Source of the DNA: a virus
Length of the DNA: 64,000 nucleotides
Direction: 5' to 3' (one strand)
IMG/VR virus record: IMGVR_UViG_3300048014_000015
Span: 1 to 64,000 of that record
Below are positions 968 through 25,496 of this stretch, piece by piece. Numbering within the stretch: the stretch's first letter is position 1; each line of letters begins with the position of its first letter. A program made the translations under genes and the position numbers. The notes beneath the pieces were generated by a model that was not told the DNA's origin, did no database searches, and worked only from the letters and a program-made list of their open reading frames with translations.

Positions 968-2062
968 TCAAAAGTAGAGGCTCGTGATTAATCCGCAAGT
1001 TTCGGGTGCCACTATCGACATTCCGTAAGTTTCGTATATACCTAATTTAGTAAATTGATCCCATTTTAGGTATTCAGATTTTGTAACCATTTCTTGACCA
1101 CGATATACAAACATGTGACAGCTACTAAATCCGCTATTCACCTGTCCAACATTACTACCCAATGCACCCGGTAAAGCTAGGATGAGTGCAGTGTTATAGT
1201 TCATAATATCACTATAACTACCGGGTACGACCATACGACTGGTAAGAGTCTGTAAGGTGGGGTCGATAATCAATTCTAATCCATATAACTTATTCGGCAT
1301 TGACCATTCACCATTCTGAGATTCCTTATCACCCCTAATTTGGGCTTCAGCGAACACGCTACGAGCTAAGTACGAATGCATTTCAGCACTAGCACCAGCA
1401 ATAATAGCTGCATCAGGGTCAATAATTATCGCTAAATCTTTGTAACTAACAGTAGCTAGCGAATCTTTTCTAATTTGGTTAGATAAGTTAAGAACACTAC
1501 GTTTAATTATAGGATTAGTTTCCGAACCTTGTGCCCATCCACCACCGGATTGACCGTTAAGACTGCTCCACTGGGTAGAGGTCATAACGTGGGTAGAAAG
1601 GTGATTAACGGGATTGAGCATTAAGCTATAAAATACAGATGCTCTAAGAGTCATCATCATATGACCTAATGCATCTATTTTAGTATCTTCAATCGGCCAT
1701 ACAGCCTGTTCTTTTACCTGTTCTCCCAGATAATCAGGCATTGCAATTCTATAACACTGAAAAGCTACCGACCTAAAATCTTGTGCATTATGGTTACCGG
1801 TCGGAAATGGCTGTCCATCAACCCAAATATAGTTATTAGGTTGTTGGAAAATACGAGCTAATGATTCAGGACGTAATACTAACCAAAACCCTGATAGGTT
1901 TTGTGTAGGTGTTCTAGTTACTACCCTATTTACTGCAAATTTTTTATAATCCCTAGCATAACTAACAATAAGGCGAGCCATCGCCTTACCATCGTTAAGA
2001 TTGGGAATATATACATCATATGGACCCGGTAAACCAGTTGTATTCGGAAAAAAGGTTGCCAT
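968..2062 (-). CDS. putative major capsid protein (positional call)
   Basis: 364-aa ORF after the scaffold-like gene and a small head gene. Size is typical of HK97-fold coat proteins. No family motif recognised by eye. Confidence 0.45.
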   Translation of the reverse strand: MATFFPNTTGLPGPYDVYIPNLNDGKAMARLIVSYARDYKKFAVNRVVTRTPTQNLSGFWLVLRPESLARIFQQPNNYIWVDGQPFPTGNHNAQDFRSVAFQCYRIAMPDYLGEQVKEQAVWPIEDTKIDALGHMMMTLRASVFYSLMLNPVNHLSTHVMTSTQWSSLNGQSGGGWAQGSETNPIIKRSVLNLSNQIRKDSLATVSYKDLAIIIDPDAAIIAGASAEMHSYLARSVFAEAQIRGDKESQNGEWSMPNKLYGLELIIDPTLQTLTSRMVVPGSYSDIMNYNTALILALPGALGSNVGQVNSGFSSCHMFVYRGQEMVTKSEYLKWDQFTKLGIYETYGMSIVAPETCGLITSLYF

Positions 2063-2112
2063 TGTACTACTTCCTTATAGGTTAGATAAAGATCAATATA
2101 TTTATTTAGAAA

Positions 2113-2550
2113 TTAGAAGTTATATTCACCAAATAGTACCTGACAACGAATTAATGTGCCCGCTACTCCACCTTCTAATGCCCTAGCCCCTACCCATTGC
2201 TGACCACCACCAATAACAACTGGTTTAGCATATCCCGAAGCATCACTAGATAACATTTGATTCGGCAGACAGGTTTGACCACTACCAACAACCACCATTG
2301 CGTTCATATCGAACTGTTCGTATACCCTGATAGGATTACCCGACGCAGCAGCGGGATATCCTTGAGGGGTAAAAGCTGTTTGCCAGCTAGTACCCATCAT
2401 ATTATTTGTCCATTCGGCAGCTACACCGATAATCGGTACGCCACCCCCCGTACATTGGAGTGCTCCAAATGGTACGTTTGGTGCATCCTGAATGAATGTG
2501 AATGGGTTGATAGTCCCCATTGCAATTCTTGAACTACTATTACCTTCCAT
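2113..2550 (-). CDS. hypothetical small head protein (possible decoration/auxiliary)
   Basis: 145-aa Gly-rich ORF between the scaffold-like and capsid-like genes. TTTAACCTATAG motif lies 8 nt upstream of the ATG. Confidence 0.5.
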   Translation of the reverse strand: MEGNSSSRIAMGTINPFTFIQDAPNVPFGALQCTGGGVPIIGVAAEWTNNMMGTSWQTAFTPQGYPAAASGNPIRVYEQFDMNAMVVVGSGQTCLPNQMLSSDASGYAKPVVIGGGQQWVGARALEGGVAGTLIRCQVLFGEYNF

Positions 2551-2597
2551 TTAATTACCTATAGGTTAAATTGCAAAGGGAAACCACAAATCAGTCA

Positions 2598-4721
2598 TTA
2601 TCGAATACCGTACTTCTTACGACAGTATTTAATAGCCTCTTGACGAGATTTACCACTTGCCTGAATATTGGCAAATTCATTAATAGCTTCAAATGATCCG
2701 TGACTACCTAACCTATCTTCAAAATCATCGTCTACTTCTTCTGATGGTTGCTGTCCTGCAATATCAGTTTGGGTTCTGGAGTAACGAGCTACAGAAGCTA
2801 CATTAGGGGCACTACGTTTAGTTAGGTCGGGACGACGACGAGCATAACACATACGCATTTCTTCAATTTTATCTTTTACGTAAGTATCTGGTTGTCCTTC
2901 ATCTCCCGAATCTTCATCATGTAAATAAGCTAACGTTAATTCTTCTAAACGCTGATATTTAATCTTGTCGGAAACTTCTGGAGTATTGCCGAACATTACC
3001 CCTTCCGATTCCAATTGATTAATATCTGCTTCAGCTTTCATTCGTGATAGCTGAATTCTTAAGTCTTGAATAATCCTATCGCGTTTATCTTCTTTTTTCT
3101 GCATACGTGTAGGCATTTTATTACCTCTAGACATTTGATGGGAAGGGTGATGATTTTTGTTGCCTTTAGGAAAATTAGGAATATATCCGCTAGATGGTCC
3201 AGGCATACCCGTAGAATGTGTCATACCAGCATCCATTTTTACTGGTTTTTCCCCATGCATTGAGCGTTGGTCTTCATCTGGTTCTTCTTCCTCTGGTTCA
3301 CCTTCTTCTTCTGGTTGTCCACCACCCAAATCTGTTGCTGGTGGTGGCATTTCTTCACCACCTTCGGGACCACCAGCACCACCCATTTCCTGTTCCTCCC
3401 CCATCAAATTTTGTAGCATTCCTTTAATTTGATCTATACCGGAAGACATTTCTTTCCATTGTTTGGATTGAAATACCTTAGCTAACACTGGGTCGTCATT
3501 AATATCTTCTCCACCCATTTCGTCGTGTTCGTCTTCATCCGGAATAGACTCTTCTCCACCGTCATAATCGTGTTCGTTTCCCGCACCATATCTACTGGGG
3601 TTTTCCTCATCCACCGTACCATCATCTTGTTCGTATTCACTATATTTGTGTGGAATACGTTCTTTAGGTATATATTCTCCACGACCATATTTACTGGACA
3701 TATTACTATTCCGTGAGTTGTGGAAAGGAGGGAGTTTACGCCTTTCTCTACGATCATCTACATATTTTTTATCTGACATTTCTTTAGCTTGCTTATCTGC
3801 TATCTCTTTAGCTCGTTTTTTCTCTGCTGAATTCATTCTTTCTAAATCTTCTGGTGAGTACTGATCTTCATCATCATTATCGTCGTCATCCTCACCTTCA
3901 GCATATTTAGATGGTTTACCTTTTTTGGACTCATCAATAGCAATCGCTATAGCTTGTTTATGGGAAGTAACTTTAGGACCGTGTTTAGACCCGGAATGTA
4001 GTTCGCCATTTTTAAATTCATGCATTACTTTATGTACTTTACCATTCTTAGAGTTACGTCTTTCTGCGTACTTATGTGTAGGTTTATTATCATCAATATA
4101 GTACGTCTCGATGGAGTAGTTCCTGTGACTAGAGAAACGGATCACCTGCCCTTCGTGGTTAGAGTTATCCGAGTCCGATCTAGTAGTCCGAATACCAGAA
4201 CTAGCCACATTCCCTACACCCATCGAGACGTGGTTCAACCTACTTTGCCGTAATACAACTCCTAAATCTCTTTCGGGAGAACTACCACCCAGCATTGCGA
4301 TAGGATCAATATCTTTTTTATTCCACCACAATTCTACCGACCGTCTTGGATATTCTTCTACTAAGTGTGCCTTATTGGGACGTAACTTATAGTCCCCACG
4401 AATTGCATATATAATCTGTCCATCTGCTCTACGTTTAAATGGTTTAACCCTATAATTAACTACGAATCCTTGAGCGGGTTTTTCAGGTGCCCTTGGATCG
4501 TCAGACGTGTGACCTAATATTAGTGTAGCTGGATCACCGGTCTCATATACTTTACGATTATTATTTTGTGCTATTTCTTCTAATACTTCCTTACCCACAT
4601 ATGCTACTGGTTCTCCCTCTTCATTCGTCATCTCGTGTTCATCGAGTAACGGTACGTCAGGAATTGTTACCCATTTTTGAGGGTTATCAAAATCGTATTT
4701 TGCTGCTGCTCCCCAATTCAT
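2598..4721 (-). CDS. putative head scaffolding/maturation protein with a long acidic, His/Lys-rich disordered region
   Basis: 707 aa. Globular N-terminal ~170 aa, then low-complexity stretches (EGEDDDDNDDEDQ, EEEGEPEEEEPDED). Position is upstream of the capsid gene. Functional call is positional only. Confidence 0.4.
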   Translation of the reverse strand: MNWGAAAKYDFDNPQKWVTIPDVPLLDEHEMTNEEGEPVAYVGKEVLEEIAQNNNRKVYETGDPATLILGHTSDDPRAPEKPAQGFVVNYRVKPFKRRADGQIIYAIRGDYKLRPNKAHLVEEYPRRSVELWWNKKDIDPIAMLGGSSPERDLGVVLRQSRLNHVSMGVGNVASSGIRTTRSDSDNSNHEGQVIRFSSHRNYSIETYYIDDNKPTHKYAERRNSKNGKVHKVMHEFKNGELHSGSKHGPKVTSHKQAIAIAIDESKKGKPSKYAEGEDDDDNDDEDQYSPEDLERMNSAEKKRAKEIADKQAKEMSDKKYVDDRRERRKLPPFHNSRNSNMSSKYGRGEYIPKERIPHKYSEYEQDDGTVDEENPSRYGAGNEHDYDGGEESIPDEDEHDEMGGEDINDDPVLAKVFQSKQWKEMSSGIDQIKGMLQNLMGEEQEMGGAGGPEGGEEMPPPATDLGGGQPEEEGEPEEEEPDEDQRSMHGEKPVKMDAGMTHSTGMPGPSSGYIPNFPKGNKNHHPSHQMSRGNKMPTRMQKKEDKRDRIIQDLRIQLSRMKAEADINQLESEGVMFGNTPEVSDKIKYQRLEELTLAYLHDEDSGDEGQPDTYVKDKIEEMRMCYARRRPDLTKRSAPNVASVARYSRTQTDIAGQQPSEEVDDDFEDRLGSHGSFEAINEFANIQASGKSRQEAIKYCRKKYGIR

Positions 4722-4927: not shown

Positions 4928-5374
4928 TTATTCTGGTTCACCTACAGGACTTTCAATTAGCCATTCATGCGAGTTTCCGGGATTTATTTCTCCACTCTGA
5001 TATAAACCATATTTCCACGGTAATCTAAATCTTGTTGGATCACGTTTCCATGTTTGAAGTTTACCAGATACACGAACTGGATGGGCTTCCCCCCTCCTAT
5101 TACGGGAAGTTCTATGGAAAAACGGCCCTAGTGATTTATTGTTTGCTAATCTCTCTTCTAATATCTTTTTTGTAACACTAGGTATAGCTAATACCCTTTG
5201 GGTAGGTGATAGACCTATATGTAAATCACCGTCGTAGTTTCTTAATCTATCTAATACTTTAGGATGTACTGTAGGATCATTATCCTCTAACCAATCTGCA
5301 AACACTTTTCTAGTAGTAATATCGTTAGGTTCTTTAATTAGTTTATCTATAAATGCTTGTCGATCTTCTCTCAT
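4928..5374 (-). CDS. TIGR02996-like (repeat-companion) domain protein
   Basis: N-terminus reads ...NDITTRKVFADWLEDNDP..., matching the D-x-x-x-R-L-V-[FY]-A-D-W-L-E-E-x-G-D-P signature. Confidence 0.7.
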   Translation of the reverse strand: MREDRQAFIDKLIKEPNDITTRKVFADWLEDNDPTVHPKVLDRLRNYDGDLHIGLSPTQRVLAIPSVTKKILEERLANNKSLGPFFHRTSRNRRGEAHPVRVSGKLQTWKRDPTRFRLPWKYGLYQSGEINPGNSHEWLIESPVGEPE

Positions 5375-7724
5375 GTTTTTTGACTTGACGAGCTAACTTA
5401 CGCCTAGGATTAATAAATTTACTATTTAAATTAGGGATTATTTCACCACCCTTATACTGACTACCCCTCACAATTATCCCACCCTTTGGTGCCCTATAAG
5501 CAGAGTTCTTTACCGGTTCTTCTGGTTCTTCCGGTTCCCCATCTGTAAGATTAAAATCCTCATCTGGGTTGTGCCATTCACCTATTTCTTCTGGATTCCG
5601 TCCCTTTGGATATGATTTATGACCTTGTTTTTTACCATTGTACCACTTCTTCTTGTCACCTTTATTTAATCCATCTGATGAAGCATATTTTTTGAGAGAA
5701 GGAATAGCCATAAGGTCTATGAGGTGGGTTCTGGATTTACGTTGTATAGGTGGCCACACCCTTTTAGTAGGTTTAGGGATATTAGGTGTAGGCTTATTAG
5801 TTCTACGTCTAAAATTTGTTATATGTATGTTGGCTTCTTCTGGTGAGATACCGTGTTTTTCTACTAAATAGTCCTTTAGGTTATTAGGTGCGGACCAACC
5901 TAATTCATTATGTTCGGCAATACTTTTATATATATCATTTCTATTAGGGTATGGTTTTCTTTTTACCCTAACCTCTGGAGGTATAATGTGAACAGGTTGA
6001 GGTAATTTAAATCCTAATTCATCAGGATTGGTTCCCGATTCTTCAGTTAATGGGAACTTTTCCGTACCCTTTAGTTCTTCATATGGAAATGCACCAGCTA
6101 ATTCTAGTGGGGTAGCGTGATGTTCTGGATTAGCTAAATCTACGTCTGTAGGATTACCAAATTGATATTGTTTATCATTAAAATGATATTGACCTAAATA
6201 ACGTACTAGACCAGCAACACCAGGAACTAGATATCTACCTAGTTGTGGATTTAGAAAGTGAGAGTGCCTACCTAATAGTCTTGCTGTTTCTATATATTTA
6301 CCTGTAATCGGATCACCAGGACCGTGAGTATTCAGGTAATTTCTAGCTACTTCCGCATATGCTGGTACATGATCCTTCATTACCCTATTCATGTAGTCCG
6401 GTTCTGATTCTCCACTACTTTTAGGAGGAACTAATCCCTCTTGTAACATTGCTCTATGAATAGCATCATTGAATACCTCATTTTCTACATGTGGTATATG
6501 TTTATTAGGTAAATATTTACCAATTATTGCATACCTTTTAATTAACCTACAACGTTTAAATTGTCCAGGTTGAATATTTGATAATACTGAATGTGTGTTT
6601 CTATTTCTAGCTCTTGGATTCCTCTCCCAAGCTGGAGTTTCATATTCTGGAACAGTATATTTTTCATTACCATGACGCCTAACAGTATTACCATCTTTAT
6701 CTACTTTCCAGTTTGTATTCTCCCTATGGTGTTCTGTTTCCGCATTACGTCTTAAAGAATCTTGAATATCTTTATAGGTATGATCTTTTAATGCTCCTGT
6801 ATGATATAGGTGCTTACGAATAGCTTCATACCATTGTTTACGTTGTTCTTCATTTACTCCACCTATACCGTGTTCAATACCATTATAAAATCTACGTTGT
6901 AATTGATGTTCTGGATGTATCCCCTTGGAAGCTTTACGAACGAACTGAGCTATAGCGGAATCTAGTGTTAATTTTTTACCAACATTATGCCAATTATATT
7001 GTGTAGCTAATTCATATGCTCGTCCTTTCTTGTTTCTATCATGTAACATTAATGCATTACGGAGTTCCACGAATTTATCTGGATAGAACGATCCACCCGC
7101 TTCTTGGGCTAATTGAGCTAAATGTTTATTAGACCCACCCAAAGATGGGTGATGTTCTATTTCATTTAGAACTATACCTAATCTGGAACCAGCTATTCCA
7201 GAAGAATAATTAGTAGTATCCCTGGCACGACTTACAGTTGTAGAAGCATATTTTTTAATTAACCTACGACGTTTAAATTGTCCAGGTTGATGGCCTAATA
7301 ACTCTGCTTGTCGTTCTAGGGGTAATTGATTAAATGCGTGTGCAGCAGCATCTTCGGCATGTTGTCTGGGACGATTAACAAATATTTTGGACTCTATACT
7401 ATTACTACCTGATAAGTGGTGTATGTAGTGTTGGTCGTGTCCTTGTACTAAATTAAGCCAATCTTTAGGGATTTCAAAATGACTTGAATCGGGTTCCAGT
7501 CCCAGTTCAAACCAAGTGTGATCTATATTAGTAGACTCTGGATCATCGATAAAATTGTATCTGTATCTATAGGGTTGCTTTTGTAATTTACCTAATGCTC
7601 GATACCCATTAGCTCTAGGATCACCACGTTCTTCTAACCAGTCAGCAAATACTAGTCTTGTATTGTGGTCATCAGGATTCTGGTCTAAGTGTCGTTGAAA
7701 GTCTTCTTCGCTAGTCATTACCAA
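5343..7724 (-). CDS. large TIGR02996-like domain protein (793 aa)
   Basis: N-terminus FQRHLDQNPDDHNTRLVFADWLEERGDPRANGYRAL. Internal repeat QPGQFKR[RC]RLIK[KR]YA occurs twice. Confidence 0.75.
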   Translation of the reverse strand: MVMTSEEDFQRHLDQNPDDHNTRLVFADWLEERGDPRANGYRALGKLQKQPYRYRYNFIDDPESTNIDHTWFELGLEPDSSHFEIPKDWLNLVQGHDQHYIHHLSGSNSIESKIFVNRPRQHAEDAAAHAFNQLPLERQAELLGHQPGQFKRRRLIKKYASTTVSRARDTTNYSSGIAGSRLGIVLNEIEHHPSLGGSNKHLAQLAQEAGGSFYPDKFVELRNALMLHDRNKKGRAYELATQYNWHNVGKKLTLDSAIAQFVRKASKGIHPEHQLQRRFYNGIEHGIGGVNEEQRKQWYEAIRKHLYHTGALKDHTYKDIQDSLRRNAETEHHRENTNWKVDKDGNTVRRHGNEKYTVPEYETPAWERNPRARNRNTHSVLSNIQPGQFKRCRLIKRYAIIGKYLPNKHIPHVENEVFNDAIHRAMLQEGLVPPKSSGESEPDYMNRVMKDHVPAYAEVARNYLNTHGPGDPITGKYIETARLLGRHSHFLNPQLGRYLVPGVAGLVRYLGQYHFNDKQYQFGNPTDVDLANPEHHATPLELAGAFPYEELKGTEKFPLTEESGTNPDELGFKLPQPVHIIPPEVRVKRKPYPNRNDIYKSIAEHNELGWSAPNNLKDYLVEKHGISPEEANIHITNFRRRTNKPTPNIPKPTKRVWPPIQRKSRTHLIDLMAIPSLKKYASSDGLNKGDKKKWYNGKKQGHKSYPKGRNPEEIGEWHNPDEDFNLTDGEPEEPEEPVKNSAYRAPKGGIIVRGSQYKGGEIIPNLNSKFINPRRKLARQVKKHERRSTSIYR

Positions 7725-8800
7725 TATCCTAATATAGTATCAAATACATTATACCACTGTTTACGACATTCTTCTTTATTCCAATTATATTGTTCTTCTA
7801 CCCTCATTCTACCATAGCTAGCAAGTTTAACCCTAAGTTCGTGATTAGTAACTAATTCTGTTAAAGAGTCATAAAAATCCAGATTATTATTACACTTTAG
7901 CCCATCAATACCATGCTGTATACAACTATATTCCCCCCAATCAGTAGCTAAGGGTACAGCACATAAAGCCCATGACTCCATAATCCGTAGATTAGACTTA
8001 CCCGCATTAAAGTTAATTGGCGATAGTGGAGCTAAATATATGTGAGGATTAATTGAACTTAGTATCTGATGGTAAGATACAAAAGGAACCATAGGCTGAT
8101 ATAATAGCCCTTTATGTAGGTATTTTCTTACAATACCTCCGTGTGGCATCATACCGGAAAATATTACTACAGCCCTATTTCCATTATTTAATCCACAATA
8201 TGTACTTAAAAACCTATCTAAAGGTTCTGTAATTTCGTCTACATCTCCCTTATGGGTTTCACTACCAACCCATACCACACGTACTGGGGTTTGTACTTTG
8301 ATGTTATATTGCTTTCCTCTACGTCCATCTAAATCTTCAAATTCTTCAGATTCTACATGAGGATACATACCTAAATCTAGTAAGTTTGGAGCTATCAGTA
8401 CTTTCTCTTTTACGTCTGAAAATGTAGTAGCTAAATACGGTGTTGATACTACAATCCAGTCAGATAGCTCTTTCATAATATCGTATACACATAATCCACC
8501 TTCATCTGGCCTAGCTGGATTCCAATTAGGAATAGTTAACCAATCATCATCAAGTGACCAAACAAATTTAGCCCCATTTCTACGAAGATGTTGAATCTCT
8601 AATAGGGTATTAGAAGCATTCTTTACATCTGGTAACCCACTAAAATAGTATACCCCTTTACCGAACGATGGTCCAGGACCAACCTCAAAATGCCAGTCTC
8701 TATCATACCTTTCGTGACAAAATCTAGCAGGTTGCAATACTCGATGGTAATTACATGCTCCATCGTTAGGGTAGAAAAAATACATAGTCTTTTTGGACAT
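7718..8800 (-). CDS. glycosyltransferase (GT-B fold, GT1/GT4-like)
   Basis: C-terminal half (GKSNLRIMESWALCAVPLAT...GIDG...LRVKLASYGRMRVEEQYNW) resembles the GT1/GT4 nucleotide-sugar binding domain. Confidence 0.6.
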   Translation of the reverse strand: MSKKTMYFFYPNDGACNYHRVLQPARFCHERYDRDWHFEVGPGPSFGKGVYYFSGLPDVKNASNTLLEIQHLRRNGAKFVWSLDDDWLTIPNWNPARPDEGGLCVYDIMKELSDWIVVSTPYLATTFSDVKEKVLIAPNLLDLGMYPHVESEEFEDLDGRRGKQYNIKVQTPVRVVWVGSETHKGDVDEITEPLDRFLSTYCGLNNGNRAVVIFSGMMPHGGIVRKYLHKGLLYQPMVPFVSYHQILSSINPHIYLAPLSPINFNAGKSNLRIMESWALCAVPLATDWGEYSCIQHGIDGLKCNNNLDFYDSLTELVTNHELRVKLASYGRMRVEEQYNWNKEECRKQWYNVFDTILGYW

Positions 8801-8836
8801 GGAAGAATCTTTCTTGAAAGAAATAACCTATATAAG

Positions 8837-10945
8837 TTAGCGATGACCAAACTCATCTATAATACGTTGATGTTCTTCAGGTGTTAAATATACTAAATGA
8901 GTAACTACGTTATTATATGGACCAGTAAGTAGACGGTAAGAATATACTGACGGTTCGTGGGTTTCTGGCGAATGACCACCCGCGTACAGCGGTGTATATG
9001 AGATTCTAAACGAATCCCCAGTATCTATATGATTGATCGATCCCTGACTTATAGGCCCTAGGTTATCATTATATGGTAGTAACCCGTTTATATGATTTGC
9101 TCTACCTTCATCCCACCCACCGGGATGGTTACTATACTGTAAATCCCTACGAACTATAATATGTCTCGGATCATCATAATCTTCAAATTTATCAGCTAAT
9201 ATACTATCAGCATGTCTATTACTACTAACTCCACCAACTTGACCAACGAATGGACGTATTTCATTCTCTGGTGCCCTACCGTATTTCTTAACCATAATAC
9301 GATTTAATCTTTTTTTATCTCTTGTATTCAATACCTTTTTATCTTGTGTTACCAGGTTAGGTTTAGATTGCAATGATCTATATCGAGTTATAATTCCTGA
9401 TGGTCCAGGTGGGCCGATTCCCTTTTCTTTAGAAATATGTATTAGGTTATTTTCTTGTGCATACCTTTCTGCTATATCTAGTGCTTTTCCTGTAAATTGT
9501 CCATTTTGTAACTGTCTTCTAGTAACATTCCCAAAACGATCAACATATGCTTTGAGTCTATGACCTAGTTCTTCTGGTGGTCGTAAATGTTGTGTACTCC
9601 TGAATATCTTGGTAGTTCTGACTCTGTTACGATTTCTTAGTTTTTCAATAAGTGGGGAATAGTGTGTTATTATACCGGTTGGTCCACCCTTTTTCTTAGA
9701 TATTTGTATTAGGTTATTTTCTTGTGCATATTTTTCTGCTATAGCCAATGCTTTTGGGGTGAATACACCAGTACGGTATAAATCGTTTTTCCCTAGTATT
9801 TTTCCTTTACGCTCTACAATAGTTTTTAATCTGTGTCCTAATTCTTCTGGTGGCCGTAAATGCTGTTTATCTTTATACCTGTTAACAGCCGCAATTCTTT
9901 GTCTTAATTGTGTAATACGTTTTTTAGCTTTATCACTCAAATTATCCATTATATCGTTACCCTTTTCAGAGTAACGTATCACTTTCCTACTTAATCTCTT
10001 TACACCTTTATGATCCCATAATTTACATCCCCAATTAGTCTTTACATTCATATGTACTTGATTGTTAAAGCAGTATAAATTACCACCACTTTTATCTGCT
10101 TTATGGTGTCTACCATACTTACACGACCCGCAAGATTTTCCAGATATAGACTTAGGTAGTACTACTAACTCTACTTTCTTAGCTCTATCTTTTTGTGCAG
10201 GAGTAAGGTTAGGTCTTCTATAGGTTATTACTTGTATACGTTTACGAGATAGTTTCTTAGGTTTCAATAATCTATTCTTAGTTTGTTTTGGTAAACTACT
10301 AAAGGCTAAAGCAGCAGCATCTTCTGAATTACGTCTACTAGTGTGATATCTCCAATTATTATTAGGGTCACTATATTGGTCGTGGTCGTAACGAGGGTGG
10401 TTATTAATAATTCTTCTTAACCAACTCTCTGGTAATGCTCCATTTATACCATACCAGGTGTAATTGTGTGAACTATTTTCATTTCTACCCCATACCCAAG
10501 TATCGTCAGGACTATATCTAGATTGATTAGGTCTTTTTTTTAATTGTACTAATGCTCTATACCCTTCTGCTCTAGGATCATTACGTTCTTGTAGCCAATC
10601 AGCAAATACAAGTCTTGTATGGTGGTCATCTGGGTTAGCGTCCAATAACTTATGAAAGTCTTCTTCAGTAACTTCGGTAGAATATCGCTTAGGCTTAATA
10701 CGAGATAGTTGTTTAGGTTTATTAGGAACCCACGGCATTATTACGGCACTTAACTGATGGGCAGGTCTACCAAACTCATCATTCTCCCCACCAAATGATA
10801 TAGGCTGATGTTGGGTGGGTCTACGTTGTTGTACCTGTTGAACTGCTGGTGGAGCAGAACCTTGAGATTTAGGTTTAGTCTGTACTGGTGTAGGAACAGG
10901 TACAGTTATTTGCTCAGTAGGTGTATTTCTGCTTATAACTGGCAT
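8837..10945 (-). CDS. large TIGR02996-like domain protein (702 aa) with an internal ~70-aa duplication
   Basis: aa ~94-135 read EEDFHKLLDANPDDHHTRLVFADWLQERNDPRAEGYRAL. Two repeats begin with QHLRPPEELGHRLK. Confidence 0.75.
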   Translation of the reverse strand: MPVISRNTPTEQITVPVPTPVQTKPKSQGSAPPAVQQVQQRRPTQHQPISFGGENDEFGRPAHQLSAVIMPWVPNKPKQLSRIKPKRYSTEVTEEDFHKLLDANPDDHHTRLVFADWLQERNDPRAEGYRALVQLKKRPNQSRYSPDDTWVWGRNENSSHNYTWYGINGALPESWLRRIINNHPRYDHDQYSDPNNNWRYHTSRRNSEDAAALAFSSLPKQTKNRLLKPKKLSRKRIQVITYRRPNLTPAQKDRAKKVELVVLPKSISGKSCGSCKYGRHHKADKSGGNLYCFNNQVHMNVKTNWGCKLWDHKGVKRLSRKVIRYSEKGNDIMDNLSDKAKKRITQLRQRIAAVNRYKDKQHLRPPEELGHRLKTIVERKGKILGKNDLYRTGVFTPKALAIAEKYAQENNLIQISKKKGGPTGIITHYSPLIEKLRNRNRVRTTKIFRSTQHLRPPEELGHRLKAYVDRFGNVTRRQLQNGQFTGKALDIAERYAQENNLIHISKEKGIGPPGPSGIITRYRSLQSKPNLVTQDKKVLNTRDKKRLNRIMVKKYGRAPENEIRPFVGQVGGVSSNRHADSILADKFEDYDDPRHIIVRRDLQYSNHPGGWDEGRANHINGLLPYNDNLGPISQGSINHIDTGDSFRISYTPLYAGGHSPETHEPSVYSYRLLTGPYNNVVTHLVYLTPEEHQRIIDEFGHR

Positions 10946-11427: not shown

Positions 11428-11566
11428 TTTCTCCACCAAATAATATGGGTGAATGAACTTGAGGACGAACCTGTTTAGGTGCTTCTGACTGTGTTTTAGA
11501 CTGTACAGGCGTAGGTAAAGGAACCTGTATATTAGTTACAGGTTGGTTAGGATTAATAACAGGCAT
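11393..11566 (-). CDS. small hypothetical protein (57 aa), paralogue of the N-terminus of the 8837..10945 product
   Basis: MPVINPNQPVTNIQVPLPTPVQSK...PILFGGENDGF versus MPVISRNTPTEQITVPVPTPVQTK...PISFGGENDEF. TAATG stop/start overlap with the upstream gene. Below the ORF-track size cut-off. Confidence 0.45.
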   Translation of the reverse strand: MPVINPNQPVTNIQVPLPTPVQSKTQSEAPKQVRPQVHSPILFGGENDGFDKETKRY

Positions 11567-14304
11567 TACTTATAGCCCCTAAATGTTCTACGACGACGAC
11601 TATATAAATTTCTACCTGGACTATGTTTACCAATATTAATTTTAAGTTTCTTACCTGGATGCCCGCTAATATCCCAACTCCAATTATTGTTACCTTGTTT
11701 GGCTTTCATAGCTGCATTTATAATCGCATGCTTTAATAGGTTGTGTACTACAGGTATATGTTTTTTACCTAAACCTAAAAATTTAGCTAATGCTCTAGCA
11801 TGTGTGGTAGCGTGATTGTGTGCCCAACTATCAAGAGTATTATGTAATTGGTCATTAGGTGGTTGACTGTTATTAGGTGGTGTCGGTTGTGCAGCAGTCT
11901 TATGTGATTCTGGTAAATAAGGTAATTGATGTAATCCGTGTTCATCACCTCCCCTTACTTTACCTAATAAAGTAAGGGGAGATGGTTGTACGGTAGTCTT
12001 TTGTGGCTCTGGTAAGTAGGGTAGAGAATGATAACCAGCAGGGTCTTCCTCTTGATTTACCCTAGGTGGTGGGGAGTAGTTAGCTGGTCCATACATTGCT
12101 TCCATACCCATATCTAGGGCTGGATCATGCCATTTACTAGTTTTTGGTGAATCTATAACTTTAGGAAATTTAGGTACAGGTGGTTTACCTAAAGCATACC
12201 TTTTTAATAACCTATTACGTCTTTGTTGAATTGGGTCGTTTTCATGTTTCATAATTTTATTCCTAAAGGTGTCTCTAGCTTGTGCTTGATCTTGTGAACC
12301 TACTGTAAAAAAATGTCCTTGTGATGCTTCGATAGGTACTTTTTGTTGTTTAGCAAACTGATGTATAGTATTGGTATTTTGGTTACCCTTATCTGGTAAT
12401 AATATATCTAACCCCTTTTTATGTGGTACAAAGATTCTACTCATTATACCAAACCTATCAAGCTTTACTCGTGTCTCGTATCCAGAACCTTGCATCCGTA
12501 GACGATATAATGTATCTGGTCCACTAGGTCTAACATGAAATACACCATATCCAGGACTATTCGGTAATAATCCATTTACCCAACTACCTAGAGCATGTGC
12601 GGCATTGGGTTGTATTCTTCCATATACTGCCACCGCTACACCTGGAACGGATTGAGTAGGGGTATCGTGCAATGCAGGGAACTGTTTGGTCTTTTGTGCT
12701 CCAACTTTCTTAGCTAACTCCCGAGTACGTTGTACGAATATTTTATGTTCAGGACTACTCGCTTTTAATAGTGCACCAATAAAGTTAGACTTATTGGCTA
12801 ATGAGTACTTTCTAGGTAGCCTTTTACCATTGTCTCTTAGTGATCCATTACTAATTCTTACCCACCCATCATTCTGTTTAGGAAACACTTCTGCTTCATA
12901 AGTAACTTCACTAACGCCGGGTACTTCTTTAAACTTTTTTATAGGTAAATTATTATTTCCTTTACCCCAATTATCCCCATCACCGCCCACATACCACACA
13001 TGACTACCTTTAACAAATATCTGTCCATAACCCGGCATAGCACCATTTTTAGATAATAATTTACCTATAGAAGTTAATTTATTATAATCTAACTTTTTCT
13101 TCTTATACCGAGTAGCTATCTCATTTTGTTTATTAGTAGGATCATTATCGGACTTTTCATGCGGATTGTTTAACGCACTTTTAACACCCCTATATGGTGG
13201 ACTACCATGCCTATTACGTGCTGCTTCCTGAAGTCCCCTATACGCATGTCGTTGTATGGATTCTTCTATCTCTTTATCGCTTGATTCCGGTGATAGTTGT
13301 TTAATTCTGTTAAAAATTCCTATATATCTTGACCTATCGTATCGTGGGGTTCCAGGTTTAGTTCTTCTATCCGAGTCAGCTTCTACAGCGTAATACTCTG
13401 GTGAGTGGGAAAAAGGATTATTAATTGCCGTCACTGGCCTATTTTCTTCTGAAACCTTTCTGAGAACAGAGTAGGTATGTTGATCCAGGTGCAATTTATT
13501 AACTGCATTTAACCAATTATATTTAGCTTTTAATATTGGGTGTTTACTGTGATTTAGTTCATCGTGTAAACCCCATAAAGCCTCTGCATGTCCCCTAAGA
13601 ACTGCTACAGCTAAATTTCTAGCATCTGGTGTACTATGTTTACTATTAGCTATATGCCTTAAAGCATACTCAATAGGAAATCCACGTACTAATGGATGTG
13701 CTGGTTCTTTATATGGGAATCTAGCATATCTTTTAGGATTGTTACTTCTAGGATAAGCGGGTCTACCCTTTTTCTTTAAAAACTCAATAGGTTTAGTTCT
13801 ACGATGCATAGAATAGTAATCTTCTGGTATTGTCTCATCAGGTCGCCAATCTACTCCTTCTGCTTCTGGTGCTTTTCCTCCTAACCCATACATCCATAAA
13901 TGGTATTCAGATAATGGTTTACCGATGAGTTCCCTTGCTTCAGGTAACTTATCCCAATCACCATGTTCAGCTTCACTATGTGGTACTGCTTCTCCTGCAG
14001 ATTGCCATATATACTTGCCATTATGTTTTACAGGTTTATAACCCCTTACAACTTTCCAACCTCTTATAGATGATTGAGACTTACCGTATATCCCTGGTTT
14101 ATTAAGATCAGTATTTACTAATTCACTATACTTTATAGATTTAGTTCTACGATTCATATTAGTATATCCTAACCTATATAACAATCGTTGTAACAGCAGT
14201 AGTTTATTAGGTGGTAGTTCAAGATTAAGTCGCTTTAATTTCTTCTGTTCAAGAAGAAGTTCAGCAACTTTCTTTTCCATCTCCTTCCTGGTCATTATCC
14301 CCAC
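11566..14304 (-). CDS. large hypothetical protein (912 aa)
   Basis: Long uninterrupted ORF with basic K/R-Y-A/S motifs and an internal LPYLPE[PS].K repeat. No enzymatic motif recognised. Confidence 0.7.
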   Translation of the reverse strand: MGIMTRKEMEKKVAELLLEQKKLKRLNLELPPNKLLLLQRLLYRLGYTNMNRRTKSIKYSELVNTDLNKPGIYGKSQSSIRGWKVVRGYKPVKHNGKYIWQSAGEAVPHSEAEHGDWDKLPEARELIGKPLSEYHLWMYGLGGKAPEAEGVDWRPDETIPEDYYSMHRRTKPIEFLKKKGRPAYPRSNNPKRYARFPYKEPAHPLVRGFPIEYALRHIANSKHSTPDARNLAVAVLRGHAEALWGLHDELNHSKHPILKAKYNWLNAVNKLHLDQHTYSVLRKVSEENRPVTAINNPFSHSPEYYAVEADSDRRTKPGTPRYDRSRYIGIFNRIKQLSPESSDKEIEESIQRHAYRGLQEAARNRHGSPPYRGVKSALNNPHEKSDNDPTNKQNEIATRYKKKKLDYNKLTSIGKLLSKNGAMPGYGQIFVKGSHVWYVGGDGDNWGKGNNNLPIKKFKEVPGVSEVTYEAEVFPKQNDGWVRISNGSLRDNGKRLPRKYSLANKSNFIGALLKASSPEHKIFVQRTRELAKKVGAQKTKQFPALHDTPTQSVPGVAVAVYGRIQPNAAHALGSWVNGLLPNSPGYGVFHVRPSGPDTLYRLRMQGSGYETRVKLDRFGIMSRIFVPHKKGLDILLPDKGNQNTNTIHQFAKQQKVPIEASQGHFFTVGSQDQAQARDTFRNKIMKHENDPIQQRRNRLLKRYALGKPPVPKFPKVIDSPKTSKWHDPALDMGMEAMYGPANYSPPPRVNQEEDPAGYHSLPYLPEPQKTTVQPSPLTLLGKVRGGDEHGLHQLPYLPESHKTAAQPTPPNNSQPPNDQLHNTLDSWAHNHATTHARALAKFLGLGKKHIPVVHNLLKHAIINAAMKAKQGNNNWSWDISGHPGKKLKINIGKHSPGRNLYSRRRRTFRGYK

Positions 14305-19011: not shown

Positions 19012-19035
19012 AATGTTTAACCCATGGGTTAGGTG

Positions 19036-19117
19036 TGGTAGTGGTGGGAATCGAACCCACAAGCTTTTCAGCGACCGATTTTAAATCGATTGTGTTTACC
19101 AGTTTCACCACACTACC
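19036..19117 (-). tRNA. tRNA-Leu (anticodon UAA), type II with long variable arm
   Basis: Manual cloverleaf: acceptor GGTAGTG/CACTACC, 3-bp D stem, anticodon loop TTTAAAA, variable arm GCT-GAAA-AGC, T arm GTGGG-TTCGATT-CCCAC. No encoded CCA. Confidence 0.85.
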
Positions 19118-19118
19118 G

Positions 19119-20675
19119 TTAAGAGAATACGATCTTTTTACGTTGGAGTCTTTTTCTTGGTTTATTTAACCTATATAACTCTGTTTTAGATTTTCTACCC
19201 ATTTGTTGTGGTGGTCCCTGTGGTCCCGCTTGTCCTATCTGTGGTACGCCTTGCGGTGGGGCTTGTTGTGGCATTTGTGCCTGCATATTTCCGACTTGAG
19301 ATACAATACCACTACCAATAGAGGGCTTCTTCCACTGTGATATCTCGTATACCTGATCTTCGTCTAGTGGTACACCCCATTCAAATAGCTTATCGGCATG
19401 TTCCATAAGTTGTGAGGCATTTGGATCATCAACATTAAAGGTAAATGTTCCTGGAGCAACACCGGGAGCATTGTAGGAATACAATACATTTACAAGATCG
19501 GATTGTATGGTTTCTTGTAGATCAACTGCGTGATATTTTACAATCTCGTCTAATGTCTCTCCATGTTGATCGGCAGTACCTGAACCTAATCCTGTCGCTT
19601 CTGCCTTACTAGACAAAGTTTGACCCTCAATAAACCTTTCCATTTTTGGATCAAAATAGTCGTTTACCAGTTTCCATAGTATATCCGAACTAGCTGCACT
19701 AACCTCTAATCTCTCCACCTTGTTTACATCTGGATTAGTGCTATTCCATCTAGGATAAAGTAATACAGTATTAGAAAATTGTGCTCTAGCTGCTGATTGT
19801 GCTTGCTGCATAGCCTGTGGATTGCCAGCATCATAGTAAAATATTGTTAATCCATTTGCAAACCTATGGATATAATTCATTAATTGGCCAAATACTTGTT
19901 GTTTTAGCCACCAGAACCAATACAACCTACCACGAACACCAACACCACCAATAGAACCAGCTAACTCAGGTTCAATAAAGTCGGCATCATCGGGTTCGTG
20001 CTGATGTATAATATACTGTATACGTTCATCAGGTGTTAAGAAGTGACACAATCCCCAATCGGTGGAAGTCTTTTCTCCTGGATAACCCGGATATACAAGA
20101 ACCCCCCATGTTTTAGCATCCCATTTAAGCCTTAATTTATCACCATTGATAGGTGTAAAATCTCTAACAAATATCTTTTGTTCACCCTTATAGTTACGCC
20201 ATTCATAATCTAGTTCAACAGCATACTTTCCATACCATATAGCTTGAAGTAACCACATCTTTAATCTTTGAAAATGTGGTATCTTCTTTATAATATAGGT
20301 ATTCATTTTCGCCGCTTCTACTTCGGCGGGATTCGTCTCATCGTCTGGTTTCAGTGACCAACCAACTTGAGCTACGGGACGCCAGATCCTTAACAACGCT
20401 CCCCACAAAGTAGGGTCACGTTTCATAGCTATAGCGTTTGTATAGCTATCTCTTAACGCCTCATCTGAAGTGTATAAAAATGCTCTGGATGCACTACGAA
20501 CTAGAGAGGAGAACGATAGGAAATTAGGTATACTATATCTGCCACCCCCTGGAGGTAGTCCACCCGGATCGCTAGGAGTGGGACCGGGATAACCTAACTC
20601 TTGTGCTGTAAATCCCCCAGATTCTACACTCCAGGGAGGATTTACAGAAGAGTTGGGATTGTTATTATCAGACAT
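19119..20675 (-). CDS. putative portal protein
   Basis: 518 aa, downstream of the large terminase. Gln/Pro-rich basic C-terminal tail. The call rests on size and position, with weak resemblance to Mu gp29/DUF935-type portals. Confidence 0.55.
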   Translation of the reverse strand: MSDNNNPNSSVNPPWSVESGGFTAQELGYPGPTPSDPGGLPPGGGRYSIPNFLSFSSLVRSASRAFLYTSDEALRDSYTNAIAMKRDPTLWGALLRIWRPVAQVGWSLKPDDETNPAEVEAAKMNTYIIKKIPHFQRLKMWLLQAIWYGKYAVELDYEWRNYKGEQKIFVRDFTPINGDKLRLKWDAKTWGVLVYPGYPGEKTSTDWGLCHFLTPDERIQYIIHQHEPDDADFIEPELAGSIGGVGVRGRLYWFWWLKQQVFGQLMNYIHRFANGLTIFYYDAGNPQAMQQAQSAARAQFSNTVLLYPRWNSTNPDVNKVERLEVSAASSDILWKLVNDYFDPKMERFIEGQTLSSKAEATGLGSGTADQHGETLDEIVKYHAVDLQETIQSDLVNVLYSYNAPGVAPGTFTFNVDDPNASQLMEHADKLFEWGVPLDEDQVYEISQWKKPSIGSGIVSQVGNMQAQMPQQAPPQGVPQIGQAGPQGPPQQMGRKSKTELYRLNKPRKRLQRKKIVFS

Positions 20676-21950: not shown

Positions 21951-22595
21951 TTAACTCCAATATAATGGATCACTAGAAAATCTATAACGACTAGCTTGTC
22001 TACGTTTAGAAAATCTACCTGGCTCGTCATTCTCTATTAAGTGGTCAATCAACATATGTCGGGGTGAGTCTTCATGTGGGTTCTCTAGAACTGCCTTTCC
22101 TAGCTGTTCTGACTCGGAAGTGTGAGGTAGGTTATAAGAATGAAGTCCTTGAGCTCCATTACCTATACCCCTGGTTGTATGTCTGCCATCGGGTGCCCTA
22201 TAATCTATTATTATGCGTTTACCATGTGGATGCTCTGGGTCATGTATTTGATTTAATAAAACGTGGTGACCATTTATATTTAAAAACATTCCACCTCTAA
22301 CCATATTTTCTAGTAAATCTCGGTATCTGCCATACATTATTAAATTTGTATTGTGTTGATCTTCGTTATCGTATTCGTCCCAAGGATAACCTACGTGTTC
22401 CTGGTGGTTTTTGGACAATACCCTATAACCTGTATTAGGAAAATCTTCATGACTATCAAACTTACCCCTGATAAAAAGGTAGTCGTGATATGCTCCTGGA
22501 ATATGTACCTGAGTCCTTGACTCATGACCTAAATCTTCAGTTTTAGTTATAGCATTTAATCTATTTAGATGTTCTCTTATCTGTGGTGGTATCAT
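21951..22595 (-). CDS. hypothetical protein with a degenerate C-terminal TIGR02996-like motif
   Basis: C-terminus reads LENPHEDSPRHMLIDHLIENDEP. Confidence 0.6.
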   Translation of the reverse strand: MIPPQIREHLNRLNAITKTEDLGHESRTQVHIPGAYHDYLFIRGKFDSHEDFPNTGYRVLSKNHQEHVGYPWDEYDNEDQHNTNLIMYGRYRDLLENMVRGGMFLNINGHHVLLNQIHDPEHPHGKRIIIDYRAPDGRHTTRGIGNGAQGLHSYNLPHTSESEQLGKAVLENPHEDSPRHMLIDHLIENDEPGRFSKRRQASRYRFSSDPLYWS

Positions 22596-22613: not shown

Positions 22614-24323
22614 TTAGGTTATATCCCCCCTATCCCACTTAGAAGGACTAGTACTACTTGAAGTACCACCTCCATTAATACCGAAGAAATTCCATCTATT
22701 GGGGGCACCAACTAAAGAGTTTGGCAGCAGCATTATATCACTGTTGTCAACGTGTCTGGTATCTCCTAATACTGGTCTAAGTTTATTAGGATTGGGTACA
22801 GATTCAGGACCAACAGATAGCGGAACACCTTCTGGAAATGCATGTAATAACCCCATGCCTATGGTTACACATCTATCATCGTGTCTTCCCGCCTCATGGT
22901 CGAATCTATAACCCCACATAGTAGGTTTGGTAATGAGCATTGATAATTCTTGTTCTAATGTCTGATCTTCTATAGGTATAATACGACCATTTTCTACATA
23001 ATGTTGTGGTAACCTACCAGCATCTGGCGACCATGATACCATTCTATTCTGAATAGAGGTCTTCAATATTTGTGCCATACGGTAGTTAGCTTTCCCCCCC
23101 CTATACTCGAATCTAATAACACGTATACCAATTCTTTCGTAGTATATCGCTAGTCCTTCCATTTGTGCAGGGTCGACTATCAATGCTGATAGGTTAAAAT
23201 TTTTCCTAACAACCTCTATCCATGCCTGTACGCTCCTGCCTTCCATATACCTAGGATCATTGTAGTTATCTTGTAATATAGGTATTCTTAATTCATGCGT
23301 ACCTTGCCAGCAATCGAGACGATCTACGATAGCTTTATTAGTTTCTGGTTCTAGGTGCATAACACCTAACGAACACCTATCACGAACACCCCCATAGTCA
23401 ACAACTGCGTAGTACTGGGTGTATCGTCCTCCATATGTACGCTCCCTAAGGTTGAAGTCCCTACATTTTAGACATTCTTCTTCAGTTAGGTATCCATGTT
23501 CTTCTCCTGGATCAACCCATCTATTTTTATATAGTCTATCACGTTCTCCGGGCATCATACCTTGAGATGCATCGGCTATCTTTGAATCATCCATCCACGA
23601 TGGTAGCGGCTTACCTACTGGTGCTTCAAAGAACGACCAGTATTTAGATTTTTCACACCTATTGCGTTCTTTCCATTGCCAGCTACCTTTCAATCCTGCA
23701 TTCGTGCTAACAACTAATACACAGTATGGACGTTTATTTATTGAACCTAATATAAATGACTCCCAAAATAATTTACTCTCTTCATGCTGCCAGTGTGTAA
23801 GTTCCTCAACTACAATCATATCTGGGAATGCTCCAGATTGTGTATATGCATTTTTTGTTAGAACAGATAACTCACCCCCACTACTACCAACAGCCTTTAA
23901 GTCGGATACCTGCATTCTTTCAGCTATCCAAGGATTATCAGAACATATACCTCTCATGGCTTTTGTAATGAGACTTGCTTGATCTTCTGTACCAGCACAC
24001 ACAACTATATTTAATCTCCTCCTACTCCAACCAAGTAACCAACACAATTGCCTTGCTGTCTCATGTGTCTTATCACTACCCTTGTGATAACCATTCCAGA
24101 ACCACCTAGGACCATTATAGGTATTATTAATCCCAGCTAAAGAATCTATAGCTGGTGCAACCCTCATACTGCGTTCCCATTGCCATCGTTCTGCAATGAG
24201 ACGGAATACTAGTTTCTTTGGTTGTGCGTCTACCACAACGTGAGATAGGAAATTCAAATAACCTAGCGAACTTTCGTAAGCAGCTAGGTTATAAATTTCT
24301 TCTAGTGTACTTTGTTCAGACAT
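22614..24323 (-). CDS. terL: terminase large subunit
   Basis: Deviant Walker A (HKGSDKT), Walker B (DMIVVEELTHW), and C-terminal RNase-H-like nuclease acidic residues (YAVVDYGG, LIVDP, RHDDRCV). Confidence 0.8.
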   Translation of the reverse strand: MSEQSTLEEIYNLAAYESSLGYLNFLSHVVVDAQPKKLVFRLIAERWQWERSMRVAPAIDSLAGINNTYNGPRWFWNGYHKGSDKTHETARQLCWLLGWSRRRLNIVVCAGTEDQASLITKAMRGICSDNPWIAERMQVSDLKAVGSSGGELSVLTKNAYTQSGAFPDMIVVEELTHWQHEESKLFWESFILGSINKRPYCVLVVSTNAGLKGSWQWKERNRCEKSKYWSFFEAPVGKPLPSWMDDSKIADASQGMMPGERDRLYKNRWVDPGEEHGYLTEEECLKCRDFNLRERTYGGRYTQYYAVVDYGGVRDRCSLGVMHLEPETNKAIVDRLDCWQGTHELRIPILQDNYNDPRYMEGRSVQAWIEVVRKNFNLSALIVDPAQMEGLAIYYERIGIRVIRFEYRGGKANYRMAQILKTSIQNRMVSWSPDAGRLPQHYVENGRIIPIEDQTLEQELSMLITKPTMWGYRFDHEAGRHDDRCVTIGMGLLHAFPEGVPLSVGPESVPNPNKLRPVLGDTRHVDNSDIMLLPNSLVGAPNRWNFFGINGGGTSSSTSPSKWDRGDIT

Positions 24324-24372: not shown

Positions 24373-24975
24373 CTAAATAGACTCCCCAGTATCTATGAAC
24401 TTAATATCTATATTATATTTACTTTTTATCTTAATAATTGGCCTTATACTAATGTCATTAGCTCTCCTGTTCGTTCCGTTTCTCCTAACTATTATATACT
24501 TAATAGGGTGGGCAGTTATGGGACAAGGAATACCCATAGATGGATGCCAAACTATCTTGGGAATCACATTAAAAAATTTACTACAATCTACTTGTATTTT
24601 TTCTACAAATCCTCTACTAAAACTAACCCTACTTTGAGGAATGTAACCATATATATTGTTAGGTATATTAAGGGATTGTAACTTATGTAATATTTCATCT
24701 TGTTTTTCTAGTAATTCTACCGATATGTGATACCATTTCATAGTATCTAGTATCGACATACCATTATCAACTACTACCCCCACTAATTTATTATCTTTTC
24801 TAGGTTGTGTTAGTTTATTGTGATTAGACAACTCTATTGATACCTTGATAAATTCCCCATACATCTTATCTACTTCGCTATCGCTATCCAGTAGGTAGTC
24901 TGCATACATTAATCTGGGAACATCCTCATCCCTATTCATTATCACACTAGTTAATAGTTCTTGACGTTCTGTCAT
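24373..24975 (-). CDS. TIGR02996-like (repeat-companion) domain protein
   Basis: N-terminus EDVPRLMYADYLLDSDSEVDKMYGEFIKVSIELS. Confidence 0.7.
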   Translation of the reverse strand: MTERQELLTSVIMNRDEDVPRLMYADYLLDSDSEVDKMYGEFIKVSIELSNHNKLTQPRKDNKLVGVVVDNGMSILDTMKWYHISVELLEKQDEILHKLQSLNIPNNIYGYIPQSRVSFSRGFVEKIQVDCSKFFNVIPKIVWHPSMGIPCPITAHPIKYIIVRRNGTNRRANDISIRPIIKIKSKYNIDIKFIDTGESI

Positions 24976-25492: not shown

Positions 25493-25496
25493 ATAG

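Follow-up and report, generated by a model that had tools for sequence, protein, structure and literature searches.

TIGR02996 hairpins as recurrent modules of putative portal-linked polyvalent proteins in uncultured phages, probably of Gemmataceae

The first 64,000 nucleotides of IMG/VR virus record IMGVR_UViG_3300048014_000015 (hereafter the window, meaning that whole stretch) specify six proteins, A to F, which carry a short helical hairpin of the TIGR02996 family. Three of them, A, B and C, are encoded together with X, a hairpin-less protein of the same modular family, between the gene for a Mu-type portal protein and those for a scaffold-like protein (S) and the putative major capsid protein (Table 1). 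Sequence comparison suggests that in a family of uncultured phages, probably of Gemmataceae, TIGR02996 recurs in multiple copies as a module of polyvalent proteins linked to the portal; it also indicates that the hairpin is common to three module types and that a conserved sequence, the RY junction, delimits the modules. The bare domain call on these proteins is not new, the JGI pipeline having already tagged B and E as "TIGR02996 family", and B itself is present in public databases under that name (P0121, on a 64,312-bp contig). What is new is the modular and portal-linked context, the three types and the junction.

The motif which the initial annotation had noted in six open reading frames (ORFs) was present in every one of them, in all cases on the minus strand. 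NCBIfam TIGR02996.1 (rpt_mate_G_obs, a short name that contains the abbreviated species name of Gemmata obscuriglobus) is the only or best NCBIfam match for each protein. The initial annotation would have been refuted had every copy scored under the trusted cut-off, which is not the case. Four exceed the curated value of 29.05 bits: C (43.3 bits, E-value=2.2e-11, amino acids (aa) 94–134, DNA 10544–10666), B (43.1 bits, E-value=2.6e-11, aa 6–38), E (36.7 bits) and A (31.8 bits). D, with 25.8 bits, scores slightly under the cut-off; it is nevertheless clearly a full-length member of the family judging by its alignments, since its homology extends over ~150 aa to B (39% identity, E-value=8e-21), to C (34%, E-value=3e-19) and to database homologues such as P0127 (43% over 152 aa, E-value=3e-25). 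F is far under the cut-off (16.2 bits, E-value=0.0067), and its resemblance to E (39% over 31 aa, E-value=0.002) and to a profile of E-like proteins (E-value=1e-4) makes it a marginal member. A profile built from the six copies revealed no seventh in the six-frame translation of the whole window, the next match having an E-value of 0.22; the "ADFLED" of ORF 17556–17891 was rejected as a copy, its match being non-significant. The location of the hairpin is N-terminal, as originally described, in A, B, D and E; it is internal in C and C-terminal in F.

The motif in the six proteins is real and far beyond chance. Apart from a weak match of TPR_20 to D (E-value=0.064), a Pfam scan at E<=1 found no leucine-rich repeat (LRR) or other repeat family in A to F, in line with the earlier description of their bodies as non-LRR. 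That TPR_20 match and non-significant Foldseek matches to TPR proteins are the only hints of an accidental or low-complexity likeness, or of a generic TPR-like capping helix pair. This explanation is effectively refuted, and we regard its chances as negligible, given hidden Markov model E-values down to 2e-11 on a curated model, full-domain homology at E-values of 1e-25 to 1e-30 and a tightly restricted taxonomic distribution.

The hairpin is an acidic helical element of ~45 aa (...F..L..NPDD..tRLVFADWLEE.GDP...) and the best-conserved part of the domain, with ~70% identity to bacterial copies (69–76% to some) versus ~40% for the remainder. In type 1, represented by B, C and D, the common stretch extends beyond the hairpin to ~140–150 aa and comprises the hairpin, a variable W-rich stretch, "LP.DW" and a conserved end (...RR.AEDAAA.AF..LP..RRAELL); pairwise identities are 38% (B-C), 39% (B-D) and 34% (C-D). 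With residues 1–161 of B as the query, 170 homologues were recovered, mostly standalone proteins of 125–195 aa with ~90% query coverage and 40–48% identity. A type-1 profile searched against 1.84 billion cluster representatives gave 444 matches at E<=1e-30 and 5,323 at E<=1e-3, the top ones being giant proteins with 2–10 type-1 domains each. In relatives the domain is a repeated internal bead and not a single N-terminal tag. Lys/Pro-rich tails resembling histone H1 are present at the C-terminus of roughly a quarter of the standalone homologues; a basic tail is missing from many bacterial copies.

Prediction of the domain structure, proposed in the initial annotation, gave a confident and compact type-1 model (AlphaFold2, 55-sequence alignment; pLDDT 86.3, pTM 0.80) with three N-terminal helices, a beta-hairpin and C-terminal helices, and it led to no known fold: Foldseek found no match at E<1 in the PDB or BFVD, and the type-1 profile found no true match among PDB sequences, the one hit being a FLAG-tag artefact. 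The mean net charge is -4 for the type-1 core and -5 for the hairpin; a reading of type 1 as a DNA mimic (Ocr/ArdA-like) is disfavoured because the core is only mildly acidic.

Type 2 is represented by E, in which the hairpin has the canonical continuation ...GEFIKVSIEL (compare AEFIRVQCEL) followed by an "RGFV..C...W....HP.ERV" module. A homologue search with E as the query returned only E itself, and the family was defined instead from IMG/VR loci, in the contigs of which it is common, frequently as several paralogues on one contig and with zinc-finger inserts of the CxxCxGxG kind; a profile of 18 such proteins matches E over profile positions 4–134 (E-value=5.7e-17). Type 3 is A, where the hairpin is joined to a different C-terminal half that recurs as a module in the database proteins P0130 and P0131.

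The window represents an essentially complete tailed phage of ~64.3 kb with a Mu-type portal and a circularly permuted genome, since a gene split over its two ends is a single gene in relatives. The large terminase, type-1 and type-2 queries had no match in INPHARED (50,697 GenBank phage records). Metagenomes yielded a family of 64–73-kb uncultured phage contigs with the same gene order, among them L115 (GC 0.40; capsid 91% and portal 79% identical), L111/L112 (GC 0.50; large terminase 62%) and L001/L002 (GC 0.57; capsid 63%), as well as the more distant L086, L088 and L118 (GC 0.54–0.68). Each of these relatives carries TIGR02996-type genes. The syntenic family has an unusually wide compositional range, GC 0.39–0.68, and yet 35–91% identity in portal, terminase and capsid.

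The link to the portal comes from these and other relatives; no portal fused to a type-1 domain is encoded in the window. Fusion partners were called with Pfam. P0128 (1,658 aa) consists of Portal_Mu (aa 75–455), a Gly/Pro linker, four type-1 domains and a Cys-rich module like that of C; its portal part is 32% identical to the window portal over 457 aa, its Cys-rich region 37% identical to that of C over 279 aa, in both cases following a type-1 domain, and its tail has an HEFGH motif with no Pfam peptidase match. P0137 (1,605 aa) combines Portal_Mu, two type-1 domains and ADPrib_exo_Tox. In-frame fusions of Portal_Mu to type 1 thus occur in two independent cluster representatives. P0127 (1,622 aa) has five type-1 domains and Zeta_toxin, and P0240 a type-1 domain and PI3_PI4_kinase. 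A ParB-like module suspected by eye in P0127 had no Pfam support and is not claimed. In L118 (GCA_040384245.1, JAWVHA010000523.1, 106.9 kb), P0128 is followed directly by P0127 and then by an S-like gene, these fusion genes occupying the slot equivalent to the head block of the window.

Similar comparisons indicate that A, B, C and X are built from a single family of modules, shuffled and exchangeable between related phages. These four proteins are encoded between the portal gene (19119–20675) and the scaffold-like and capsid genes (968–4721), in an order shared with L115 and L118. In L115, module 2 of B forms the C-terminal half of a 455-aa protein and module 3 is a separate 393-aa gene, while the orthologue of C is 47.5% identical over aa 3–333 of C and keeps both its position and the internal type-1 domain. 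P0130 is composed of a C-terminal piece of B, a C-terminal piece of C, two type-1 domains and an A module, the last being 53% identical to A over 147 aa and in frame after the two type-1 domains. P0129 consists of X modules interleaved with type-1 domains, and X itself matches an 818-aa protein of L115 (39–50% identity). Pfam revealed no family match in B, C or X. Within C, aa ~365–530 form a tandem duplication with a unit of ~75 aa (HLRPPEELGHRLK...AE[KR]YAQENNLI.ISK). The start of A overlaps the end of B by 32 nt (5343–5374) in a different reading frame, and the two may be the products of a recent fission or be joined by frameshifting.

Module boundaries in these proteins, and likewise in L115, L118 and P0127 to P0140, are marked by the RY junction, with the consensus P-x-Q-hydrophobic-[ST]-R...[KR][KR]-Y-[AS/M]. 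Examples in the window are QPGQFKRRRLIKKYAS, QPGQFKRCRLIKRYA and KPKQLSRIKPKRYST followed by EVTEEDF, and in GC-rich relatives PTQSARYQATRY followed by MTTEDDF and PAQMTRRSVKRYAGE followed by TTEEDF. The motif [KR]x?Y occurs at most 8 residues upstream of 36 of 52 internal type-1 domain starts, against a background of 9%. Among the 54 window ORFs tested, S, C, X and B together hold 21 of the 36 occurrences of [KR]Y[AGS], with 7 observed versus 0.96 expected in S, 7 versus 0.87 in C, 4 versus 1.34 in X and 3 versus 0.98 in B. Tails of RY type end X and B, and in D and F the motif is found just past the domain or hairpin; small type-1 proteins of related phages end in ..RRRLARKRYST, and the C-terminus of S is RKKYG.., a partial form of the junction, in three relatives. 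Gene fusions and fissions among related phages fall exactly at the RY junction. From these patterns the junction would be a site of processing, or else a signal for encapsidation or tethering that is common with the scaffold. Processing is favoured because fused and split versions interchange exactly at RY sites; a signal is favoured because in solo proteins the motif is retained at the very C-terminal end.

Table 1. Location and properties of the window features considered here (aa, amino acids)
Feature	Position (nt)	Strand	Remarks
Putative major capsid	968..2062	-	called from position and conservation only (91% to L115, 63% to L001); no family match
S (scaffold-like)	2598..4721	-	707 aa; net charge -33; synteny with L001, L115 and L118; conserved N-terminal domain, acidic centre, conserved C-terminus ending RKKYGIR at the stop
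A	4928..5374	-	148 aa; type 3; hairpin aa 4-33 (DNA 5276-5365)
B	5343..7724	-	793 aa (JGI: 791 aa); net charge +21
B type-1 domain	7245-7724	-	aa 1-160
B modules			module 2, aa ~165-400; module 3, aa ~486-781
B RY junctions			aa ~157-166 RRRLIKKYAS; ~396-405 RCRLIKRYA; ~678-687 SLKKYAS
B C-terminal tail			RRKLARQVKKHERRSTSIYR at the stop
C	8837..10945	-	702 aa; net charge +52
C leader			first 93 aa, ending ...KQLSRIKPKRYST
C type-1 domain	10226-10666	-	aa 94-240, then junction LLKPKKLSRKRIQVITYRR
C downstream modules			Cys-rich, aa ~260-320; ~75-aa tandem duplication; C-terminal module
X	11566..14304	-	912 aa; net charge +65; no TIGR02996 hairpin
X RY junctions			about aa 58, 191, 498 and 701; tail RRRRTFRGYK at the stop
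Gene order, portal to S			RGP-type glycosyltransferase; two methyltransferase-like genes; GT2 glycosyltransferase; X; 154-aa ORF; C; GT4-like gene; B; A
Glycosyl-/methyltransferase cluster	7718-8800, 14295-15200, 15496-16074, 16085-17563, 17935-19062
Portal, Mu-type	19119..20675	-	PHROG 113, E-value 3e-26
F	21951..22595	-	214 aa; degenerate hairpin aa 162-194 (DNA 22014-22112), then ...KRRQASRYRFSS; gene between large terminase and portal
Large terminase	22614..24323	-	PHROG 9 and PHROG 2; 62% identical to L111 homologue
E	24373..24975	-	200 aa; hairpin aa 3-49 (DNA 24829-24969), then RGFV..C....HP.k.. module; gene adjoins large terminase, upstream side
Small terminase	26939-27511
D	33032..33925	-	297 aa; type-1 domain aa 1-150 (DNA 33476-33925), then ...TAMRYM... 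and a basic His-rich tail; directly downstream of DNA polymerase A
Family-A DNA polymerase	33965-36076
tRNAs Leu-TAA, Arg-TCT, Ile-TAT	19035-19117, 25496-25569, 25663-25733
GC-rich island	30700-33000		plus-strand ORFs
Island repeat, 88 nt	31158-31245, 32251-32338		97% identical
Island repeat, 45-nt core	30888-30932

How the phage came by its six copies had been explained as capture and amplification of a host module. The sequences do not bear this out: B, C and D are only 34–39% identical and no closer to one another than to copies elsewhere, the window copies carry the low GC of the phage (0.32–0.42, window 0.39) as against 0.55–0.72 at bacterial loci, and a neighbour-joining tree of 52 type-1 domains, which is without support values, is star-like with phage and bacterial copies interleaved and favours neither direction of transfer. 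Since they are divergent, phage-like in composition and common to the whole phage family, and since the tree is star-like, the copies appear to be old resident paralogues of that family.

The view that the domain is largely planctomycete and specific to one host lineage was upheld. A census of 185,579 species, each represented by a single genome, gave 298 confirmed loci, with taxonomy taken from the best 80; these 80 are nearly all from Planctomycetota, chiefly Gemmataceae (Gemmata, Frigoriglobus, Limnoglobus roseus PX52, Fimbriiglobus and Zavarzinella), with a few Myxococcota and a few oddly labelled contigs from metagenome-assembled genomes (MAGs). In IMG/VR, 27 viral contigs hold relatives, often 2–5 copies per 20 kb. 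One Planctomycetota MAG contig (VGZJ01000088.1; L003/L004) has at its end a tandem array of about eight small type-1 genes, beside DUF1501 and PSCyt/PSD genes of typical planctomycete kind. One Limnoglobus roseus copy (L020) may be prophage-borne, since only 3.5 kb separate it from genes homologous to two in the tail region of the window; PHROG annotation of this locus added nothing beyond the two BLAST matches. The window encodes exactly three tRNAs, which read 44% of the Leu, 36% of the Arg and 43% of the Ile codons of the phage. This set fits an AT-rich phage in a GC-rich host, and a member of the Gemmataceae is therefore the likely host.

At least some of the copies are probably cargo that is packed in the phage head and injected with the DNA. 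For A, B, C and X, a role as capsid cargo of the "polyvalent" type is a reading whose prospects we put as evenly balanced. They would enter the prohead beside the portal, would probably be cleaved or tethered at their RY junctions, and would be released into the cell together with the DNA. The type-1 domains would then serve as non-catalytic multi-copy protein-binding modules, and our guess at their target is a Gemmataceae-specific partner of the TIGR02996 proteins of the host, which would be bound or mimicked at the start of infection; that type 1 is a non-catalytic binding module aimed at such a host-lineage-specific target is a tentative and rather unlikely proposition. The suggestion in the initial annotation that the copies are virion-associated or injected finds indirect agreement for A, B and C, encoded between the portal and scaffold-like genes, and in the fusion of the domain to Portal_Mu, toxins and a kinase in relatives; it does not carry over to D, E and F, the genes of which lie outside the head block and which may be free accessory versions of the same modules.

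A protease that might cut at the junctions was looked for in S. Its N-terminal ~175 aa are highly conserved, H29, G70-H71-T72, S128 and E130 being invariant across four phages, and this domain could be a head protease; a role of S as head protease plus scaffold is suggested by position only. The sole family match of S is DUF6496 (aa 226–267, 39.8 bits).

A number of observations weigh against packaging of A, B, C and X. Their presence in virions is predicted from genes alone, and the partner suggested for the type-1 domains is entirely conjectural. PHROGs, Pfam, NCBIfam and a PDB profile revealed no head protease in S or elsewhere in the window, and the single-sequence AlphaFold2 model of the N-terminal domain of S was unusable (pLDDT 33). 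A, B, C and X themselves contain no recognisable enzymatic, MuF or LPD domain and no peptidase of HExxH type, and would be "polyvalent" solely through the homology of their modules. An RY tail ends only 8 of 212 small homologues overall. The head block is not purely structural either, glycosyl- and methyltransferase genes being interspersed in it. Finally, most type-1 proteins are the products of small standalone genes at variable, accessory-looking places, such as between portal and terminase, on the other strand, in L086, or in the bacterial tandem arrays (L003), and in L113 and L117 type-1 genes adjoin AcrVA2-like or Acb2-like genes.

The last of these points would be expected if the proteins were unpackaged cytoplasmic "moron" or anti-defence decoys, interfering homotypically with TIGR02996 proteins of the host (e.g. 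TIGR02996-LRR sensors), and if their location in the head block were incidental. Copy number and position do vary, L111 having a single copy in place of D, E and F (its F slot is taken by P0009, a complete type-1 protein of 152 aa); standalone copies are found near AcrVA2-like, Acb2/Tad1-like and sigma-factor genes in other phage contigs, and the ~70% identity of the hairpin to bacterial copies is in keeping with mimicry of this kind. What such decoys leave unexplained are the in-frame portal fusions in two independent cluster representatives, the conserved position and internal domain of the C orthologue in L115, and the junction motif common with the scaffold-like protein. As a general account cytoplasmic action is unlikely; it is viable for D, E and F, and it is compatible with injection, as injected cargo can itself be anti-defence.

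A purely structural explanation starts from the charge of the proteins. That of B, C and X is high and positive, the histone-like tails mentioned above occur on about a quarter of the standalone homologues, and up to 10 domains are repeated in one polypeptide, all of which would suit proteins that bind or condense DNA, or that form an internal scaffold or "inner body" organising the packaged genome, with no effector function in the host. The acidity of the domain core and hairpin, the absence of a basic tail from many bacterial copies and the nature of the fusion partners in relatives, which are toxins and kinases and thus typical effectors, make it an improbable alternative to injected cargo.

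If A, B, C and X are indeed injected cargo, a bolder version may be put forward, in which the RY junction would be a new processing or encapsidation code for interchangeable beads, and the type-1 bead a stoichiometric injected decoy of a host docking hairpin, switching off a Gemmataceae-specific defence or regulatory network at DNA entry. We consider it highly speculative and probably wrong in this form; were it true, dozens of copies would be present per virion, e.g. as portal fusions, and TIGR02996 would acquire its first function.

Relative to TIGR02996 as catalogued, the window proteins have the same ~45-aa hairpin, four of them over the cut-off, and the same Gemmataceae-centred distribution with some Myxococcota. 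They differ in being phage-encoded, in having no LRR or recognised repeat after the hairpin but three other module types, and in that the hairpin may be internal (C), C-terminal (F) or present in up to 10 copies per polypeptide (relatives). A literature search for "TIGR02996" or "repeat-companion domain" found no paper.

Polyvalent proteins, as described by Iyer, Burroughs, Anand, de Souza and Aravind (2017; PMC5512222), combine several domains and are specified by genes that adjoin those of the virion in portal-terminase phages. Fusion to portal or MuF is frequent; packaging, in many cases with proteolytic processing, and injection along with the DNA are either predicted or known, and the domains are found singly as well. 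A, B, C and X resemble them in sitting among the virion genes of a portal-terminase phage, and the relatives do so through solo modules and through fusions to portal, ADP-ribosyltransferase, zeta-toxin-like kinase and protein/lipid-kinase-like domains. B, C and X are multi-module and have no module with a recognised activity; it is the relatives that add ADPrib_exo_Tox, Zeta_toxin or PI3_PI4_kinase. The differences are that the repeated module is TIGR02996 type 1 and that modules are joined by the stereotyped RY junction. The HExxH motif that an embedded zincin-like metallopeptidase would show is absent from A, B, C, X and S. A term search of PMC5512222 found no mention of Planctomycetes or Gemmata.

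The MuF-domain polymorphic toxins of temperate phages (Jamet et al. 2017; PMC5576092) are likewise head-associated carriers, specified beside the portal and having variable C-terminal toxin domains, and the window portal is of Mu type. Here the carrier is the portal itself or a modular chain and not MuF, and Pfam revealed no Phage_Mu_F domain in A, B, C, X or the other head-block proteins.

In T4 (the internal proteins and Alt) and in phiKZ (the inner-body proteins), the prohead protease cuts at a short consensus and the products are ejected with the DNA. The likeness lies in a short recurrent motif in scaffold-like and cargo-like head-block proteins and, for Alt, in an ADP-ribosyltransferase among the fusion partners of relatives. 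The motif described here, basic residues followed by Tyr, is unlike LxE or S/A/G-x-E, and the system is known from genes alone.

To our knowledge, phages of Gemmata-type planctomycetes are almost unstudied. TIGR02996, an orphan lineage-specific multi-copy domain, would gain in these proteins its first concrete biological context, as head cargo delivered at infection, and the polyvalent theme would be extended to a phylum that the term search did not find in the original survey. A coherent family of uncultured phages of ~65–70 kb and GC 39%–68% has been identified, and two testable handles gained: the binding partner of the hairpin, and the role of the RY junction, be it cleavage or packaging.

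The transferase cluster in the head block comprises an RGP-type protein (PF03214, 83 bits, with a DnaJ-type zinc finger at aa 253–285), GT2 and GT4-like glycosyltransferases and two Methyltransf_24-like proteins, and parts of it recur in L111, L113 and L115. Its products may glycosylate or methylate virion proteins, or modify DNA. The window also encodes a Sak4-like protein and an exonuclease. Outside the head block, a GC-rich island (0.48–0.63, flanks 0.36–0.40) contains ORFs each preceded by a repeat which includes a Shine-Dalgarno-like sequence and a start codon, and which looks like a repeated promoter or 5' leader.

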